Source: Atractiella rhizophila
Lineage: Eukaryota
Length of the DNA stretch: 50,856 nt
Assembly: GCA_021432655.1 (NCBI GenBank)
Contig: MU271523.1
Location: forward strand, 1-50,856
Direction of reading: 5' to 3'
Within the stretch, counting starts at the first letter, position 1. Every line of letters starts with the position of its first letter. The position numbers and the translations under genes were made by a program. Below are positions 12,686 through 40,723 of the stretch, in pieces. A model generated the notes under the pieces. The model worked only from the letters and a program-made list of their open reading frames with translations, made no database searches and was not told the origin of the DNA.

Positions 12686-15217
<2,532 letters not shown>

Positions 15218-31442: not shown

Positions 31443-32926
31443 ATGGCGGAAGGGTACATCTCTGCGCTCACGCTCATCTCACTCACGACCGTTTCCCTCT
31501 ACACTCTTACAACATTTTACTCGTACCTATCACGTCCTTCCGCGCCATCACCACCTCCTATTCTCTCGGGAGAGTTGCATACCACCAAGATCGCCATGCC
31601 GGAGGATAATTTGGAAGAAGCGAGGGAGAGGCGAGCCGTATTCTACGTGCCGGAGGACGTGCAGAAAGAGAAAGAGAAAGAGAAGGGAGAGAAACCAGCG
31701 CTCTTGATTTATTTGCACGGAAGCACGGAGAATGGAGAGCAATCCAGAAGTTCAACGACAAGGTGTGTCTATGGAATCCCTCTCAGCATCGAGACGATGG
31801 ACATTCGTTGATTGTGACACAGATACGAGTACGATGTCCAGGCTACTATCCTAAGCAAACGTTCTGGGAAAAGGGGATGGATAGTTGCATATCCAGATGG
31901 GTACAAAGGTGTAAGTCACTATTGCTTATACTGCTGACGAATCTGACCTGCTTTTATGTCGTGGTCCCAAAGTACTGGAATGACTTGCGCCGTTCCAATC
32001 TGCCACCACAGAAAGACGATGTGCACGACTCCCTGTTCCTCTTCCGCCTCATTCAACATGCTATAGAGACCTACAACGTCTCCCCATCCCACATCTTCCT
32101 CACCGGGTTCTCGAATGGAGGTCAGATGTGTTTGCGCCTAGTGCAGGAGCTCGGTGCTGTTCCGCACTCCGCAAGTCATCCTTCTTCGAACAAGGACGAC
32201 GCAAACCCTCGTATACGAGCCATCGCTCTACACTCAACTACTCTACCCCATCATTCCAACTTGCGCTCTCCTGAACCGATAGCTGAAGATCCTGAGCCAA
32301 AACTCTGTCCGATCATCATGTGCAACGGAACGGCTGACCCTGTCACTCCTTACCGCGGGGGAGAGACAGCATTCATTGGGACTTTTAGGAGCATCGGACT
32401 CTTGTTTGGAAGGCGTGGGAGAATGAGAGGTGTCATGGACAGTGCAGAGGAGTTCGCTCTCGGGTGGAGAAGAGAGTTGAAGCGTTTATCGTCGATAGGT
32501 GCTCAAGGGGAAGGTCACGAGAGCGCAAAATTGCGACGAAGGGAGAGATCTTGTGATATCGTCCAGCAGAAGCATAGGAACCAGGTTTACATTACGGAAT
32601 GGTATGAAGAGTACCTGGAGGAAGATGAATTGGAGTTGGGAGCTGGGGATCGGAGGAGCAGGAGCAGGAGCGTAATAAGTGTGGACTGGGAGAGGGCGGA
32701 ATTAGAAAGGAGGAAGGAGGGGAAGTCGTTAGTTAAGTGCATAGTTGTGAAAGGGGACGGTCATAATGTTGCTCTTAGTTCCGGTGGGAGACGACTGCCA
32801 GTGCGTTCCTCTTCGTCTCGACGCATTCTTTGACTTATTACTTGATAGTTGGTCATGGGACCTCAATTGCAAGCACTCAATGCACCAAAGGCCGTCATGG
32901 AATTTTTTGACCAGTTCTTGGATTAA
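31443..32926 (+). CDS. Alpha/beta-hydrolase, LpqC / PHB-depolymerase-like esterase with an N-terminal hydrophobic anchor
   Basis: LLIYLHGS, WIVAYPDG..YWND, nucleophile elbow IFLTGFSNGG, NGTADP (acid) and GDGH (His); three GT-AG introns; stop at 32924-32926. Confidence 0.85.
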
Positions 32927-33329
32927 TGAGCATTCGACTTTCGACTTCCTTTTACGCGTTTTGTTAGTTTCATGAGTTCAGTTACGTTTCTGTATGATCC
33001 CATATACCCTCAACACTGAAAGTCTGCCTGCGGAAGCTTCCCATGTCTATCATGTCCATATTTTGCACAATATACATAATGTACCAATCTAGGGGCAATA
33101 ATATGAAGCGTAATGCAAGGTTAGAAATTGAAACTCGATTGAAACTGATATTGAAATCCTGATATTGAATAGGTGCAAACATGATAGTGAGTAAATGACT
33201 AAATCTGAGTTATTTGTAACAACAGTGAGAACATATGCACGAAATGTTGGAGTTGTTTCATGTCAGATTATTTATATAGACGAACAAAGAACATCTATGT
33301 GAAAGTCGAGACTCAAATACTTGAAAAGG

Positions 33330-36300
33330 TTATCGTCTCCGTTTAGTCGTATGTGAGGCCTGAGAGGTCTGGGATTGCTTCTCCATGAACTGCCTCAGTT
33401 CTTGTCGATCAACTTTAGCGATGAAGTACGTTCCTGCTTTATCGGTCCAACTGACATGCTGCTTGGCATACTCGAGGGGGGGACTCTGCATCAAGATGGC
33501 TTCGACGGAGTTGCATTTGTAAAGGGACAGCTTGAAGTCGGTCGCCTTGAATGGTTGCAGCGAGACAATCATCGCTCCTTCGCGAAGGTCGAGAAAGCGG
33601 TCGGCGATGGAGCGGTTGAGAGTCGCAGAGAACACTTGGTTGTTACACAACTGTTCAAAGGCATTAAACCTCGCACGGGCTTGGAGAAACTGATACTAAC
33701 GATAACATCAGCACGTTGCATAACTTCCCCTAAGCTCTCGCTCGTCACAATGTCGTCTTCCCTCGCTTCCACTTGGCCACCTCTCACACCCCACATCTTC
33801 CATCTCTTCCGTGCTTCCTCCACTTGTAGTGAGCCTAGAGATGCCGTGCTGCTCAGGTTCTCATAACCGTAGGCTTCGCAACCAGTCCTTTATGAAACAG
33901 TTAGGATTTGGTTATTCGAGAAAGTTAGAGACATCGTACGCGAGTGCAGCCTGGATTGTGCAATTGCTTACTCCAGAACCGAGGTCGACAAACACCATTC
34001 CTTCCCTGAGCCCTGTCTGAGAGAAAATCTTTTCCAAAAAGTTTGGGAGTAGCTCTCCATACACATTATTAGACCACGACTCGTACTTCTTCAGTTCCCC
34101 GACGTTTGGACCAATGGTTCTTTCATAAGTTTGATCTGCTATCGGTTCCCAAAGAGATCGTGGTAGCCCATTCATCTTCTGGATGTTTTCTTTTAGGGAG
34201 CCACTTTCTTTCAGCTTACGCATGGTGCGATTATACCACTCAACAGTACTTGTGAACGCAACGCCGTCTTGAGCAAGATATGCCCGGTCCAGTTGATCCA
34301 ATAAAGGTATGGGGCACTCAGAGGTGGTCGAGCCTTCCAGCTGGGAATATCCAAAGTGATCGAAAGCTTGTTCTGCCGTAAGGAAAAATTGCAAGACGAG
34401 TGAGATTACCCTTCGAAGATCGAGAATCGGGTGATATTCGTAACCATCGTGCGCCGTTGGGTGGACCAGAATGAAGCTGCATCCGGTGAACGTCCTTAAG
34501 ATGGCTGATGAAACGGGGCCATGATGACTTACAGCTCTGATGCACCTATTGCAGGGTATTCTAGGACCACTTCTGGAGCATAAAGCTCTGCATCAATGCC
34601 AGCGCTGTATCCTTTGCGGAACCCTGACGAGACCATGAGATGAAGGGAGGGCGGGGAACGCAACAACGACGCACAATTCCTGAAGCCACTTGGATTTCTT
34701 TCCACTAACCAAGCGGCACCGTACACTTCCCTGCCGACTGCCAACAGTTCATCCACAGTTGATGGATCCGCTGAGACGTCTCGCTCAACTCTCCAGTCCA
34801 CGAGATCTGTCTCGTCCCAGAAAATATCGTTAACGAGCATTGGTGTCGTGCTCCTCGACTTGCGAGCGATGAGAGACAGTGGAGGGACCTTTGACGGAGC
34901 TTTCCTCGTTCCGAAAGAAGTTCGTTTCTTGGTCAAGACACGTTTTTTAGATATCTTTTTCAGCGCCGAACGCGGTTTGATCTTGATGTCAAGATCCCAT
35001 GGCTCTTGTTCCTCTAGTTCCTCCGTTTTCCTGGAGCAACCAGCAGGCGGAGAAAGCTCAGGAAGACCAGGAGTAGAGAGAGAAGACTGAGGACTGAAAA
35101 TGACACGTCGACTTTGCCTGCTGCATTGCCATAAGGGTAAGTCATCGTCAGAATCGTCTTCTGTGCTAAATTCTTCTTCCAATGTAGCATTTTGAGGTTG
35201 ATTCTGGATCACAAAGGGCAAGGGGTCATGTTCAGTTTCTTCTCCCGCAGAATTCGAGGCGAACATCTCAGCGGAAAGAGTCCCGTAAGGTTGTGGACCG
35301 TCAGACTGGAGTTCGCTTTCTGAAAATTGTGAGACTTCCAAACCAGTTTTGAATTTCTTCATTGGTGGCTCCGGTTCCTCTGACGACGAACGAGAGCGTG
35401 GGTTCCTGAACCTCTTTCGAATCGACGGTGTAGAAGCAGTTGGAGAGACATCAGTAGCGTCATTAGTGATTCGATATTGTGTAGAGGCCTGCACCTTCCT
35501 GGTGGTCTTGCGTTTCATCTGCCTTGGTCCCAGATCGACGCAGGCATCCGAAGAACGATCATCATCCTCTGGACTGGAATCTTTCGGGAGGTCAGCCAAT
35601 GGTTGAAAGAGGGCTAAGAACGCTTCCTCGAACTCGTCCACCGTAGCTGAAGCAGACGCTAAATCTCTGTCGCAGACAGTGAATCCCCCGCTCGCCTTCT
35701 GGGTGGGTTCCACAGCGACTACCACCTTTGGTGGAGCGATATCAGATTCTGAGATTGGCATCTCAATTACTGTCGCTGCTTGATTACAAGAAGGGGATGA
35801 GATATTCTTGTCAGAATTGCCGCCGTCGACTGGAGTCTGCGTTAAGTCGCCTTGCCATCCATCTCGCCCAGATACAGACGTTCTGCTAACCAAATGGCGT
35901 TCTTTAACGCAGTGGGAACACGACGGATCGTCCTGATCATGTGTATTATTGGAGGGCTGCAGCTCGCAAGTAGCTTGCAGTGCAGCTGTCGGAACTGGAG
36001 GAGGTAACTTGTCCATGGGCGATAGAACTTGCCGACCGTGAAGAAATCTGGTGTCATGAGCTCGAGGCAAAGATGTGACGTGCGGATGTGCAGTAGTTTC
36101 CAGATCGGGCGAACTGGAACTGCCCTCCGACTGTGGAGCGGTAGATTTCAGTGGTAATTCGCTGGTTAAGGAGTGGGAGGCGACAGGACGGTGTATTGGA
36201 TCACTGGCTTGCGCTGTCACTTCACTTCGTGGTCTAACACGATTCTTCGCAAAGTGGGTTAAGCGGACTGTTTTACCGCCAAAAGGCTTGTCACTAAGAT

Positions 36301-39300
36301 GCACTATACAAGCGTTAGAACGGTCATTACGGAGCAAACTCTGCTCACTGATAACGTCGTCAGCGACCTTGAAGTTCAAAAACTCAGCGGTTGCCTTTCC
36401 TTGATACGTCCTCCTGAGATAACTTTCATCACCCTCATCTTTCGTTTGACGATGGGATGTATCGTGTTTTAGTTTGACACGCCGTACATTCCCATTGCCA
36501 GCTACAGTACTTAACCACTGGAGAAGTTCAACTTCTAAGGTCTTCGTGTAAGGCCCAAGCTATTCACACCATTAGTTTAGATAGATGGATAAGAAAAATC
36601 TCGATTACCTCCAAAACGTTAACTGGAATCCAATCATGACGATGAGTTTGAGGTTCAAATCCAGTCCGTTCAAGCGGAGAATAATTGTTGTCCCAAGCTG
36701 AACCCCTGGCGCGGGGCTTGATCATAGAACTTAGTTGCCTTGAGGGCTGATGCCCAATGGCTCCTGATTGAACACTCGCCTCATGTATCTTTTCCCGGGC
36801 GGATCTGTCCTGTGGAATCCAACTCCCGCCTCTCGACCCCTTCCAGCCACTTGGCCGCCCTGAGGTTGACAAAGGCGACGAAGAGTTCACGTTCGTAAGA
36901 CCATGGTTCAGATTTACGTTTGAGTCGACATAAACGGCGTGACGTTCAGCTGTGACCGGCAAACTGCAGGGCACGGTATTGTTAGCAATTAGCCCTTTGT
37001 TAGATATGTCGCTGCTGCGCTTAGAAGGATAAAGATTTCTTTGTTGGCCTGTTGTCAATGGCGCAGGCGTACTAGACCCCACGGACGGTGGTAGTACGGG
37101 AGTGCTAGTTGATTTCGAAGAAAGAGAAGGTTTCGGAGGGAAGGAATTGTTGGACTGCTGCTTGCTCTGACTGCTAATACAATGTGTACGGCCGATATCG
37201 CTACACGATTCGTTGGCAGCGGCATCCACACTGCGATGATTGACAGAAGGTAGCTGCCCAGACGGTTCAAAACTTCCCAAAGGACCGTTCGTCGTAGTGA
37301 GGACAGCATGAGTTCTGTCTTGTTTCTCGTGCAACCTGGCTGAACCAGGCTGTGCCAGCCTTGAATGCGGCACTTTCGATTGACTAGTTGTATGAGTTAC
37401 TGGGATGGACGCAACGATATTCGGCTGCCGAGGTGCAGAGAGAGCTGTGATCCTTGAAGGTTCGTGAGGAGGAGAATTGCGCAATATGGAGGGAGGTTTC
37501 GGTGTTGAATCTGCATTTTCAGTAGATTTGATGGGTTCCATGCCAGCATGATGCTTGTCCGTACCACGAGCCAAACTCGTTTCGCTCACAAAACTCATGG
37601 TTGGAGGCTGGAGCATTGCTTGAGCTTTAAGCAGAGATGTGAGAAGGGAGTGCTTACACCTACAACCTCAATCTGAGCGTTTTCTGTCGCCGATCCCGAC
37701 GAAATGGACTGCAGATTCGATTGCATATTACTCTTAGGTGTGAGAGGGTCGGAACAATGCAGACCGTGGGTACCGGCGTGATCGGCGTCACAGTTGATTC
37801 TTGATTCCCTTCTTTCTTGCTCCTCGTGTTGGTGCCTCTATGGAAGGGTTCAATCACACGCATCGCCTTTAAAGAATGACCTACATATTCTCTTCTGCTT
37901 CGAGTACTCGTGATCTCTTCGTCCTTATCAGCACGACGAAACCGACCACTCTCATGCACCCTATCTGTGCCCCTGCTGGAATCCCTATGAGCACTGCGGT
38001 GGCGATAGTACTCTTCGGGAGACCTCTTTCTTTCATGTCGAGAAGATGTTCTTCTATCGCTTCCTACAGGACGAGAAGGTGAAGGAGGATGGAACCATCT
38101 ATCGTGCTCCCTTGAACGACGAACTGGCGAATCGTTGTAAAAATCAGGGGAATGCCGTCTGTCTCGCCCACGATCCCTTGAATAACTTCTGGAGCGACGT
38201 CTCCGTCTCCGAGGCTGATCGTCATCTGAACGGTTTCGAGATCTGAAGCGAGTAGGAGACCGTCGATACTCAGTGTCTCTCTCCCTTCGATCTCGACCTC
38301 TTTCTCTCGAACGACTCCGGTGGCTCCGCCTTTCCCTGCTTTCTCTTCTCCTCTCCCTCGACCTTCTCTCTGTCCTATCTTCCCTCTCCAGCTCCTCTCG
38401 CGACCTCTTCCGTTGCCTCTCTTCACGCTTTTCCTCCTGCTTCGCTGTTGAAGAACTAACAAAAGGCTTCGATGCGACATCACCCTCTTCTTTCTTCGTC
38501 CTACGCAGTGATATCGGATTAATCAGTTCTGTCTCAACTTCCCGTTCTGAATGTTGCTCTACGTTCTGAGACGTTAGCAAGGTCGTACCCACCTTCTCCG
38601 CACTCTGCTTCTCATCAACGGCGCCAATGGGAGAGGCACAACCATTCTCCGGAGAAGCGAGTTTGACAGGAGTCCGAATACTCGAGGAAGAAGGGAAGTC
38701 CTTTGGCTCTCCTGGGCCAGATGATAGTTTCGAATCGTCATTCGACGAAGCGATCGTGGAAACCGGCGGTAGTTCCTCAAGCTTTGGTTTAAGAGAGGTA
38801 GTCGATGCAACAAAGGGAGATCCAGTTGTTTGCCGCTTCGGAGGAGTAGTGACTGGTCGCGCTGAAGTGGGGGAAGAAGGCGGCCTGTTTGTGCTCCTTG
38901 GCTTCCCCTTTGCAAGTGCTGAAGGGAGGAGTCCTGCTGACGGTGGTTTCGTACTTGACGGTATCGATATCGATATGGGAACGGATGGAGTGGATGAAGA
39001 TTCTTTGAGAATGGAAGCGGGTTTGGTGACTTTCGGCGCAGATGCAGTAACGGTGAAACCGTAGGCGGAGAGGATGTCGGAAGTTGTTTCCTTCGGAGAA
39101 GAGTCGGGAGGATCCTTCTTCGCTGAAGAAAGTCGTATAAGCGTTAGTTCCCTTTCGCCCATCCCTCTCCCGACCTCCTTCTCCTTTCCACCTGCTTTCT
39201 CTGCCATCCCTCCCACCAAATCCTCCTTCAACTTCACCTCAAGGCCGTGCTCTCCCAGGTTAGTCGCCTTCACCATCGCCTTCCTTGCTTCAGCGCCGAA

Positions 39301-40239
39301 CCCCATCTTCACCTGCTCCACATCCACCTTCTCCTGTCTCCCCTTTCCTCCCGTAATAGCTGATGGCACATCCACAAAGTCCGAGTGCCTTTTCTCTCTC
39401 ACCACCGATTCCTTCAGCTCGTCATTCCTCCCTACCGCCATCCCATCCCCACTCCCACACGAAACATCATCGTAGACCATACGTTTCCTCATCCCCAATC
39501 GATTCAAGAGCGAAGGAGGCTTCCGATCTGTTATCGTTGGCTGTGACGGTTCCGAAAAAGCCACTGCTGGAAGATTGGAGGCTGTTGGATGTGGAAGACA
39601 AGGGAGTGGAGTCGGCACTTGCGATTGAGAGTTTGTAGCTAGAGGGACACTCCTCAAAGTTTGCAACTCTTCCTCGCCTTCGCTCTCCCATCGTGAACGC
39701 ACTAAACCATTGCGACCGCGTCCAGATGATGGAGGAGCGATTGACGTTTCGGAGCGGTGTGGTACCGTTCGCGGAGGTAGTAGCGGGGAGACTTTAGCTT
39801 TGAGAGAGGTGGGATTGGGCCGCATGGGTACTGCTGAATCACAAGGGAGAGGAGCAGCTGAAGAAACGGGCGAGAGTCTTGCTTGGAGAGACAGGGATGG
39901 CTTGGAAAGTGATGGTCCTGATATCGAGGCTTCGATGGAGAGAGACGTAGCCGACGTCTGCGATGAATGGACAGAGAGACGCTCTGAGAGCTTGATCATG
40001 TTTGTGTTTGGAGCGAACACACGCGACGGTGTCGGCGACGGACTCGTCTCAGAATCTGAATCCTCGTCATATTCAACCAGGGGAAGAACGCCCGTCCGCG
40101 TTCCTATCCTCCCCAATAATGTACTCAAACCCAAAGACGAACCCGAATGCATACCTTTGCTCGCAGCAGAACCCTTGATGTTTATACCCTGCGCCACAGA
40201 GGCGGAACCCTTGATATGTAGCCCATGGCGGTTATCCAT
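33330..40239 (-). CDS. DOT1: DOT1 histone H3K79 methyltransferase with a very long N-terminal extension (~2,100-2,200 aa spliced)
   Basis: C-terminal catalytic domain: QTYERTIGP, SNNVYGELLP, VFVDLGSGVSN, ADVILCNNQVF, LREGAMIVSLQPF, VSWT...YF. Upstream ORFs join in frame through introns 37884-37838, 37657-37608 and 36608-36560. Confidence is high for the DOT1 domain and moderate for the full fusion. Confidence 0.85.
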
Positions 40240-40368
40240 AGCCTATCCTAGCTATTTCCTAGCTGCCCCAGGTGGAAGTGCAGGCGAGAATGTGCAAAGG
40301 TCGTTTGCTCACTCGTGATACTGCGGCGGTCGGGTCTACCACAACTCCACCAAGAACCAAGAACTAAA

Positions 40369-40723
40369 ATGACCCGTGAGTGTTTTTCCCAGTCCAGCGA
40401 CGCAAGAGACGCTGTCTGATGTATACGATATGTGCAGGCGGAAATCAGCGCGAGCTTGACCGCCAAAAGGCGCAAAAGAAGGCTGCCGAACATGCGAAGA
40501 AGCCGAAAGAGTCCAATTCGAAGTTGGCGTCGAAGAAAGAGGCTGATGCTGCCATCATGAGAGAGAAACAAGCTGTGAGTAGTTTCTCTTCCCCTTCATG
40601 TGCTCTTTTGGAGTGGATAGTTAGTTGGTGGAGGGAGACAAGCAACTGATTACTGTCTTTTGGTGGGAGCAGAAGGCGGCGGCGGCTAAGAAGGAGGGTG
40701 AGGCTAAGGGAGGAGGGAAATAA
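40369..40723 (+). CDS. SERF / 4F5 (small EDRK-rich factor) family protein, three exons
   Basis: Exon 1 ATGACCC (40369-40375) and intron 40376-40437 give MTRGNQRELDRQKAQKK...DAAIMREKQA; the last exon ends KKEGEAKGGGK with TAA at 40721-40723. Confidence 0.92.

Follow-up and report, generated by a model that had tools for sequence, protein, structure and literature searches.

An N-terminally extended Atractiella rhizophila Dot1 with an arginine-rich RS-like region, read from spliced contigs

Does the minus strand of positions 33330..40239 of Atractiella rhizophila contig MU271523.1 (GCA_021432655.1), within the window of 50,856 nucleotides (nt) analysed here, encode a single protein in which a Dot1 histone methyltransferase is joined to regions reminiscent of RNA-processing factors, and what might the added regions do? 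An earlier note, made from the sequence alone, had joined three open reading frames (ORFs) at this locus into a giant Dot1 fused to an arginine/serine (RS) domain as well as to an RNA recognition motif (RRM). The explanation that best fits the evidence as a whole, and which we hold with reasonable rather than high confidence, is an expressed ten-exon gene for a 2,152-residue Dot1-family lysine methyltransferase whose N-terminal arm would serve in targeting. The arm comprises some 1,650 residues of mostly low-complexity Ser/Pro/acidic sequence, within which lie an RS-like region and a segment of about 100 residues that resembles an RRM. In the architecture proposed earlier, the union of an RS-like region with Dot1 stands and the RRM is unproven.

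Contig evidence for a ten-exon Dot1 gene

The evidence for splicing consists of assembled contigs of public runs aligned to 33330-40239, which were used only for what the contigs bridge. The run type of X3 is not on record ('?'), X1 and X2 are RNA by guess only, and no run is on record as RNA; X3 contains 0.61 of the sampled sequence words. The X3 contigs skip nine short stretches of the locus, each with CT..AC ends on the plus strand, which is GT..AG on the minus strand, and X3 depth is present in 30 of 30 bins up to 40239. One X3 contig, record 14 (5,129 nt, depth 101), extends without a break from 38456, inside the RS-like region, through the Dot1 domain to 33330 and then about 402-403 nt further into the 3′ untranslated region (UTR), with eight of the nine introns removed. 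The same contig bridges the three introns of the earlier note, at 37838-37884, 37608-37657 and 36560-36608, which prove exact to the base, and all three of the junctions proposed there are crossed by X3 contigs. Furthermore, the two 3′-most joints of the gene are seen in contigs of X1, which comes from a different study.

With all nine introns removed, the gene (33330..40239, minus strand) reads through ten exons as 2,152 codons plus stop, a spliced frame of 6,459 nt whose sole stop is terminal. Its start ATG lies at 40239, with an in-frame stop (40243-40245) one codon upstream. Because the spliced contigs coincide with a 2,152-codon frame that has no internal stop, 33330-40239 is very probably one gene encoding one protein. 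This is a real, expressed, N-terminally extended Dot1, its expression being read from spliced contigs only. The three ORFs from which the locus was first assembled are the long ones among six stop-to-stop ORFs on the minus strand of 33330-40242, the shorter ones being 226, 106 and 121 amino acids (aa) long. Joining them into one stop-free frame that ends in Dot1 was right as to the single frame, but the 676-aa ORF stops at 34529 and six further introns are required. The components of the gene, all on the minus strand, are as follows.

37660-40242: 860-aa ORF, stop to stop
36564-37667: 367-aa ORF, stop to stop
34529-36559: 676-aa ORF, stop to stop
40239-40155: exon 1
40104..40154: intron 1, 51 nt, GT..AG; X3 joint 40102/40154, 'cut +1'; overlooked in the earlier reading
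40103-37885: exon 2
37838..37884: intron 2, 47 nt; X3 joint 37837/37885, depth 101, shorter side 180 nt; the first of the three introns proposed earlier
37837-37658: exon 3
37608..37657: intron 3, 50 nt; X3 joint 37607/37658; the second proposed earlier
37607-36609: exon 4
36560..36608: intron 4, 49 nt; X3 joint 36559/36609; the third proposed earlier; splits the putative first strand of the RRM-like segment
36559-36349: exon 5
36304..36348: intron 5, 45 nt, in frame, phase 1; X3 joint 36303/36349; inside the RRM-like segment; overlooked earlier
36303-34675: exon 6
34624..34674: intron 6, 51 nt, in frame; X3 joint 34622/34674, 'cut +1'; overlooked earlier
34623-34533: exon 7
34477..34532: intron 7, 56 nt; X3 joint; interrupts the Dot1 core in its first conserved strand region
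34476-33940: exon 8
33888..33939: intron 8, 52 nt; joints in X3 and X1; directly 3′ of the SAM-binding (S-adenosylmethionine-binding) motif
33887-33701: exon 9
33651..33700: intron 9, 50 nt; joints in X3 and X1
33650-33330: exon 10
32927..33329: 3′ UTR, at least about 402-403 nt; record 14 of X3 reaches past 33330, and the coordinates are derived from this

The raw X3 joints at 40103-40153, 34623-34673 and 33887-33938 carry the mark 'cut +1' and were moved by one base to give GT..AG ends, which leaves the protein unchanged.

The same ORFs could instead belong to two neighbouring genes, one for an RS-rich protein and one for a Dot1 started from an internal ATG, whose overlapping transcripts were merged by the assembler. 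An ATG at 37597, directly after intron 3, would suit such a start, and the public annotation holds a partial Dot1 model, with no model longer than 1,100 aa covering 34674-36559. Several points do weigh against the long protein: the evidence is throughout that of contigs, X3 is of unrecorded type, and a contig that runs over two genes is not proof of a single transcript; record 14 ends at 38456, and residues 1-577 are linked to the rest only via the open exon-2 ORF and other X3 contigs. X3 differs from the window at 132 positions, and among the 40 differences listed 15 are synonymous, 25 nonsynonymous and none a stop, the 25 indicating that much of the Dot1 protein evolves fast. Nevertheless, two genes are very unlikely, since both inter-ORF introns are spliced in the same contig with the 2,152-codon frame remaining open and the upstream part has no stop codon once spliced. 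The gaps between the ORFs measure merely 47-50 nt, exactly the introns, which leaves no space for a terminator and a promoter, and each of the large ORFs is open far beyond chance.

Three of the introns (36304-36348, 34624-34674 and 40104-40154; 45-51 nt) are multiples of three and free of stops, and are thereby hidden in an ORF map. Such in-frame introns within long ORFs may be common in the A. rhizophila genome, where they would inflate or alter predicted peptides. Intron 5 itself reads GTGAGC...TATAG, with TTCTAAC upstream of its acceptor. A further stretch of 63 nt at 39663-39725 (in frame, 21 codons) is skipped by one X3 contig at a depth of 19.8, with a shorter side of 30 nt; the ends of this joint are GC..AG on the plus strand, non-canonical for a minus-strand gene, and we leave it unexplained, since a strain indel in Ser/Pro-rich sequence, a minor splice variant or an error in assembly could each account for it. 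At the extreme N-terminus of the protein, exon 1 (40155-40239) carries a short motif, G-L/I-x-I-K-G-S-A, twice.

The catalytic core and the arginine-rich region

Three features of the spliced protein bear on its function, all of them on the minus strand.

33333..34579: Dot1 catalytic core, residues ~1790-2152, with three introns; identified by PF08123, similarity to PDB sequences and motifs
34838..35047: Lys/Arg-rich patch, residues ~1651-1720; some 75 residues separate it from the catalytic core downstream
37885..38538: Arg-rich RS/RD/RE mixed-charge ('RS-like') region, residues ~551-768; identified by composition and extending to ~770 in the next exon

The Dot1 catalytic domain recognised earlier is borne out by the Pfam DOT1 profile (PF08123), which matches two exon pieces, in the shorter ORFs, at 75.1 bits (profile positions 1-67, E 7e-21) and 54.9 bits (127-204, E 1e-14) against a cut-off of 23; the 860-, 367- and 676-aa ORFs match no Pfam family at E<=1. 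The product annotated here, P0002, is 345 aa long and 100% identical ('DOT1-domain-containing protein, partial [Atractiella rhizophila]'), and comprises the last three exons only. P0002 matches 18 distinct PDB sequences, all of them named as methyltransferases of histone H3 lysine 79 (H3K79); residues 56-319 align with the yeast Dot1p core (7k6p, 1u2z) at E 2e-44, and the match to human DOT1L (1nw3 and other chains) has an E of about 1e-26. In an alignment of five sequences (A1), FVDLGSGV (V159-V167) and N242-N243 of P0002 are invariant, VDLGSGV being what we take to be the glycine motif that binds SAM and NN presumably the active-site Asn-Asn motif. On these similarities the predicted activity of the core is most likely the methylation of H3K79 on nucleosomes. 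Next to it, residues 1671-1720 of the Lys/Arg-rich patch hold 17 Lys or Arg and no Asp or Glu; basic nucleosome-binding regions are a property of Dot1p and DOT1L.

The long form also corrects the annotation. A BLASTP comparison of the spliced protein with P0005, a 564-aa yeast Dot1, aligned residues 1792-2134 across the exon 7/8 junction, which lies upstream of the start of P0002, and the annotated model is therefore truncated inside the conserved core. A word-index search of the public protein set found no protein of 1,100-3,140 aa matching 34674-36559 among 7,999 candidates, so the long Dot1 form is absent from that set. The corrected model of ten exons and 2,152 aa is thus an improvement over the partial 345-aa model.

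The block rich in Arg, Ser, Asp and Glu that was noticed earlier is equally clear. Residues 551-770 (~38538-37832) are an Arg-rich, mixed-charge, RS-containing region with 66 Arg (30%), 32 Ser (15%), 44 Asp or Glu (20%) and 8 Lys among 220 aa, with 27 RS/SR, 30 RD/DR/RE/ER and 17 RR dipeptides, and with Arg reaching 41% in the peak 100-aa window. From residue ~578 onward the region is covered by record 14 of X3. An SR protein is defined by one or more RRMs at its N-terminus and, after them, an RS domain that is 50 aa or longer and has more than 40% RS content. Measured against this definition, residues 551-770 are rich in Arg and Ser over far more than 50 aa (98 of 220, 45%), RS/SR dipeptides cover about 25% of them rather than more than 40%, and the region lies some 400 residues upstream of the RRM-like segment rather than downstream of an RRM.

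Whether the RS-like region acts as a functional targeting module is, to our judgement, evenly balanced. It might instead direct the protein to the nucleus or nucleolus as a localisation signal, or be a basic region that binds DNA or nucleosomes, like those of yeast Dot1p and human DOT1L, with no link to RNA processing; Arg-rich regions can equally serve as plain localisation signals or nucleic-acid binders, which counts against a role in targeting to RNA-processing sites. This alternative would fit the modest share of RS/SR, about a quarter of residues 551-770, with RR, RD and RE pairs equally frequent, as well as the lack of a canonical RRM beside the region and the presence of a distinct Lys/Arg patch close to the core. 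Set against it are the 20% of acidic residues interspersed among the Arg, which suit mixed-charge regions of the speckle type better, and a distance of about 1,000 residues from the core, where the Lys/Arg patch already adjoins. Nothing similar, furthermore, occurs in three other long fungal Dot1 proteins or in the DNA upstream of 80 Dot1 loci. We consider a plain localisation signal or basic patch a possible reading, somewhat less probable than a targeting module.

These comparisons derive from a survey of proteins and of metagenome loci. Among 7,997 candidate proteins of 988-2,820 aa, three have a Dot1 profile match (P0007, P0008 and P0009; 1,136-1,382 aa). In each the DOT1 domain is C-terminal, the N-terminal part of ~900-1,160 residues lacks an RRM or other clear Pfam family, Arg reaches at most 12-17% per 100 aa, and similarity to the A. 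rhizophila protein is confined to the core. Long N-terminal arms on fungal Dot1 may thus be commoner than the textbook ~500-600 aa implies. The metagenome loci (JGI and others) are the best 80 of 134 stretches encoding Dot1 relatives, which are 32-41% identical in the core and not close relatives; their core-bearing ORFs are 245-716 aa long, and across the 80 the Arg share of 100-aa ORF windows in the 7 kb upstream stays at or below 28%. Six non-Dot1 pieces gave no similarity to any of the 80 loci (tblastn, E<=0.01), and no homologue of any non-Dot1 part was found in the protein, metagenome-locus or BLASTP comparisons, so conservation cannot support a function of the extension. When the 676-aa exon ORF was run against the whole library with HMMER, one weak low-complexity match resulted, P0001 (E 2.5e-4). 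Finally, the full-text literature searched, outside which most subscription journals lie, contains no account of a Dot1 that carries an RRM or RS domain. Passages of PMC2442719 and PMC9692433 use the term RRM for SET1. What the locus encodes is a fungal Dot1 whose N-terminus is extended and carries an RS-like region, a form not present in the searched public protein set. In this limited survey, too, the architecture is not common: none of the surveyed Dot1 proteins or loci has an RS-like region or a canonical RRM fusion.

The RRM-like segment and flanking genes

The second candidate module of the arm is a segment that the earlier note had read as an RRM.

36239..36638, minus strand: RRM-like segment, residues ~1152-1253 as spliced, with introns 4 and 5 inside; identified by a by-eye spacing pattern, fold unproven

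The peptide first quoted for this segment was not wholly coding, as one part of it, the ...SEQSLL...ACIV stretch, comes from the intron. Intron 5 takes out 16 intron-coded residues, in whose place one Met codon is formed across the junction, and intron 4 falls within the putative first strand (...WIPVNVLE / LGPYTKT...). After splicing the by-eye pattern runs strand, helix, strand, long loop, GKATAEF, helix and KPFGGKTVRLTHF, and is more RRM-like than the unspliced version. In canonical RRMs the key positions of RNP1 and RNP2 are aromatic. The motifs proposed for this segment depart from that, with K and T in the RNP1-like GKATAEF and N in the RNP2-like VNVLE where aromatic residues are expected. 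Residues of this kind are commonly met in non-canonical RRM variants that bind protein, or else where there is no RRM.

We place the probability that the segment adopts an RRM-type fold slightly below even, and if it does, it would rather probably bind protein than bind RNA canonically. The alternative, within the same single gene, is that the segment belongs to a linker that evolves fast and is largely disordered, its resemblance to an RRM, seen by eye, being due to chance. The sequence comparisons weigh on this side. Pfam returned no family of any kind at E<=1, nor at E<=10 for four unspliced pieces, phmmer found no match to PDB sequences at E<=10 with an unspliced piece, and a local RRM profile gave no match to the spliced protein even at E<=1000, that profile being too narrow, as it was built from four ORFs with three distinct sequences of one gene that we name eIF4B-like. 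Smith-Waterman alignment to three RRMs, taken from one unrelated protein and two of them near-identical, gave z of 1.3-1.9; 52-105 of 1000 shuffles reached the same level, as did other windows of the protein, so that the RRM pattern claimed for the segment is not shown to rise above chance. Two of the three X3 differences listed in the segment alter residues, and a metagenome scan with the RRM-like piece found no relative among 396 pattern matches.

Much of this must be read with the queries in mind, which limits how far the linker explanation is favoured. Every external RRM query was unspliced, lacking the first strand and including the 16 intron-coded residues, and the pieces for the PDB search, the ESM Atlas and the first AlphaFold2 run additionally lacked the last strand; only the local profile and Smith-Waterman comparisons used the spliced form. 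AlphaFold2 run without an alignment gave pLDDT (predicted local distance difference test) values of 41.5 and 37.1 on two unspliced pieces, 36270-36559, which lacks the first and last strands, and 36200-36559, which lacks the first strand and carries the intron-coded insert. These values agree with a disordered linker and are too poor to read, and the low-confidence, uninterpretable model of the longer piece nevertheless orders helix, strand, strand and strand as expected of an RRM. In the ESM Atlas all named family sets among the 30 nearest clusters belong to the RRM clan (RRM_1, RRM_11, RRM_PARP14_3 and RRM_2), with neighbour scores of only 0.77-0.84, with recognition below the mark set by the tool, and with a third of shuffled proteins also obtaining 10 of 10 same-clan neighbours. 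Against a linker stand also the improvement of the pattern once the 45-nt intron is removed and the composition of residues 1151-1250, where Ser (4%) and Pro (3%) are scarcer than in the flanks. On balance a disordered linker and the remaining possibilities divide our confidence about equally.

Within the survey, Pfam was scanned over 450 of 451 same-strand upstream ORFs (at least 70 aa, within 5 kb) of the 33 distinct loci whose upstream sequence measures 3 kb or more, and a canonical RRM fused to Dot1 was found in none of the 33, a scan that is blind to a divergent RRM, as Pfam also misses the window's own segment. An RRM_1 ORF upstream of Dot1 in L004, L005 and L006 was considered as a second fusion and rejected, because its frame closes at a stop of its own (L004:8239), ~1.1 kb short of where Dot1 probably starts. 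The gene in question, which we read as eIF4B-like, lies near Dot1 in several metagenome contigs of fungi (L004:6530-8239, L005:50-1759, L006:3-1559 and L073, with its ORF at 13428 on the minus strand); in L004-L006 its strand is that of Dot1 and it sits ~1.1 kb upstream, which is synteny and not fusion.

The A. rhizophila gene itself is closely flanked on both sides.

40380-40649, plus strand: small divergent gene, SERF-like_N (PF04419, E 1e-6), starting ~140 nt from the Dot1 ATG
31610-32833, plus strand: converging ORF of 407 aa whose alpha/beta-hydrolase matches are weak and below cut-off (Abhydrolase_2, E 0.0024)

Since the divergent starts are only ~140 nt apart, the SERF-like gene and Dot1 probably share a short bidirectional promoter. 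Between the end of the 407-aa ORF and the point at which the Dot1 3′ UTR is inferred to stop (~32927) there are ~100 nt, and the two transcripts may nearly abut.

Proposed targeting of Dot1 and comparison with known systems

The model that we favour treats the N-terminal extension as a targeting or tethering arm. Through the mixed-charge RS-like region the enzyme would be drawn to places where RNA and SR-type proteins abound, such as transcribing chromatin or speckle-like bodies, and H3K79 methylation would then be laid down where pre-mRNA is made and spliced. The Lys/Arg patch may aid nucleosome binding, much as basic regions do in Dot1p and DOT1L. It is from composition alone that we infer recruitment through nascent RNA or splicing factors, the route that the earlier note had also suggested. 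A stronger version, in which the extension is an adaptor to the splicing machinery and a degenerate, UHM-like RRM together with the RS-like region docks Dot1 onto SR-type or spliceosomal factors, appears improbable to us; the UHM-like features that can be cited for it are RNP positions without aromatic residues and, preceding the last strand, a basic-X-Phe with Gly-Gly after it. Were it true, H3K79 methylation would be written co-transcriptionally at intron removal in an intron-dense basidiomycete, a hard-wired link between splicing and a core histone mark that elsewhere is only a correlation.

To our knowledge, Dot1 is the sole known histone lysine methyltransferase outside the SET class, and yeast and animals differ in how they direct it to transcribed genes. 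With an RS-like region in its own chain, and perhaps a degenerate RRM as well, the fungal enzyme would offer a natural experiment in recruitment, and makes it testable whether H3K79 methylation can be targeted via the RNA-processing machinery.

Four systems provide the comparison. In fungal DOT1 proteins a C-terminal catalytic core is stated as a rule in the review PMC2442719. The A. rhizophila protein is like the fungal Dot1 of Saccharomyces cerevisiae (Dot1p) in its C-terminal core, its conserved VDLGSGV and NN motifs and a basic patch upstream of the core. It is unlike fungal Dot1 in being about four times the ~500-700 aa otherwise seen (P0003, 501 aa; P0005, 564 aa) and in having an Arg-rich RS-like region and an RRM-like segment, for neither of which a counterpart was found in the survey.

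An RRM upstream of a C-terminal catalytic domain is described for the Set1/COMPASS H3K4 methyltransferase in PMC2442719 and PMC9692433. Set1 is thus a precedent for an RRM joined to histone methylation, with the differences that its catalytic fold is SET, unrelated to Dot1, and that its RRM is recognised by standard profiles, unlike the RRM-like segment of A. rhizophila Dot1. In the case of SR and SR-related proteins with mixed-charge regions, such as U1-70K, the likeness lies in an Arg-rich sequence with RS/SR, RD and RE dipeptides; the RS/SR coverage of about a quarter, the reversed domain order and the unproven RRM set the present protein apart from SR proteins, so that we speak of resemblance and not of membership.

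A parallel to the arm as a whole is offered by human DOT1L and other long metazoan Dot1 proteins. DOT1L is about 1,500 aa long, against which the epithet 'giant' first given to the A. rhizophila protein is apt for a fungus and not for the family. The arm of DOT1L is mostly disordered, binds AF9/ENL/AF10 and RNA polymerase II and is thought to recruit the enzyme to transcribing chromatin, and in this it is a precedent for a Dot1 enzyme recruited by a long arm; we know of no RS-like region in it. According to PMC2442719, the core of DOT1L is N-terminal and its arm C-terminal. The A. rhizophila core, unlike that of DOT1L, stands at the C-terminus, and no similarity was seen outside the core. What the two proteins have in common is membership of the same catalytic family (E about 1e-26) and the possession of a long non-catalytic arm.

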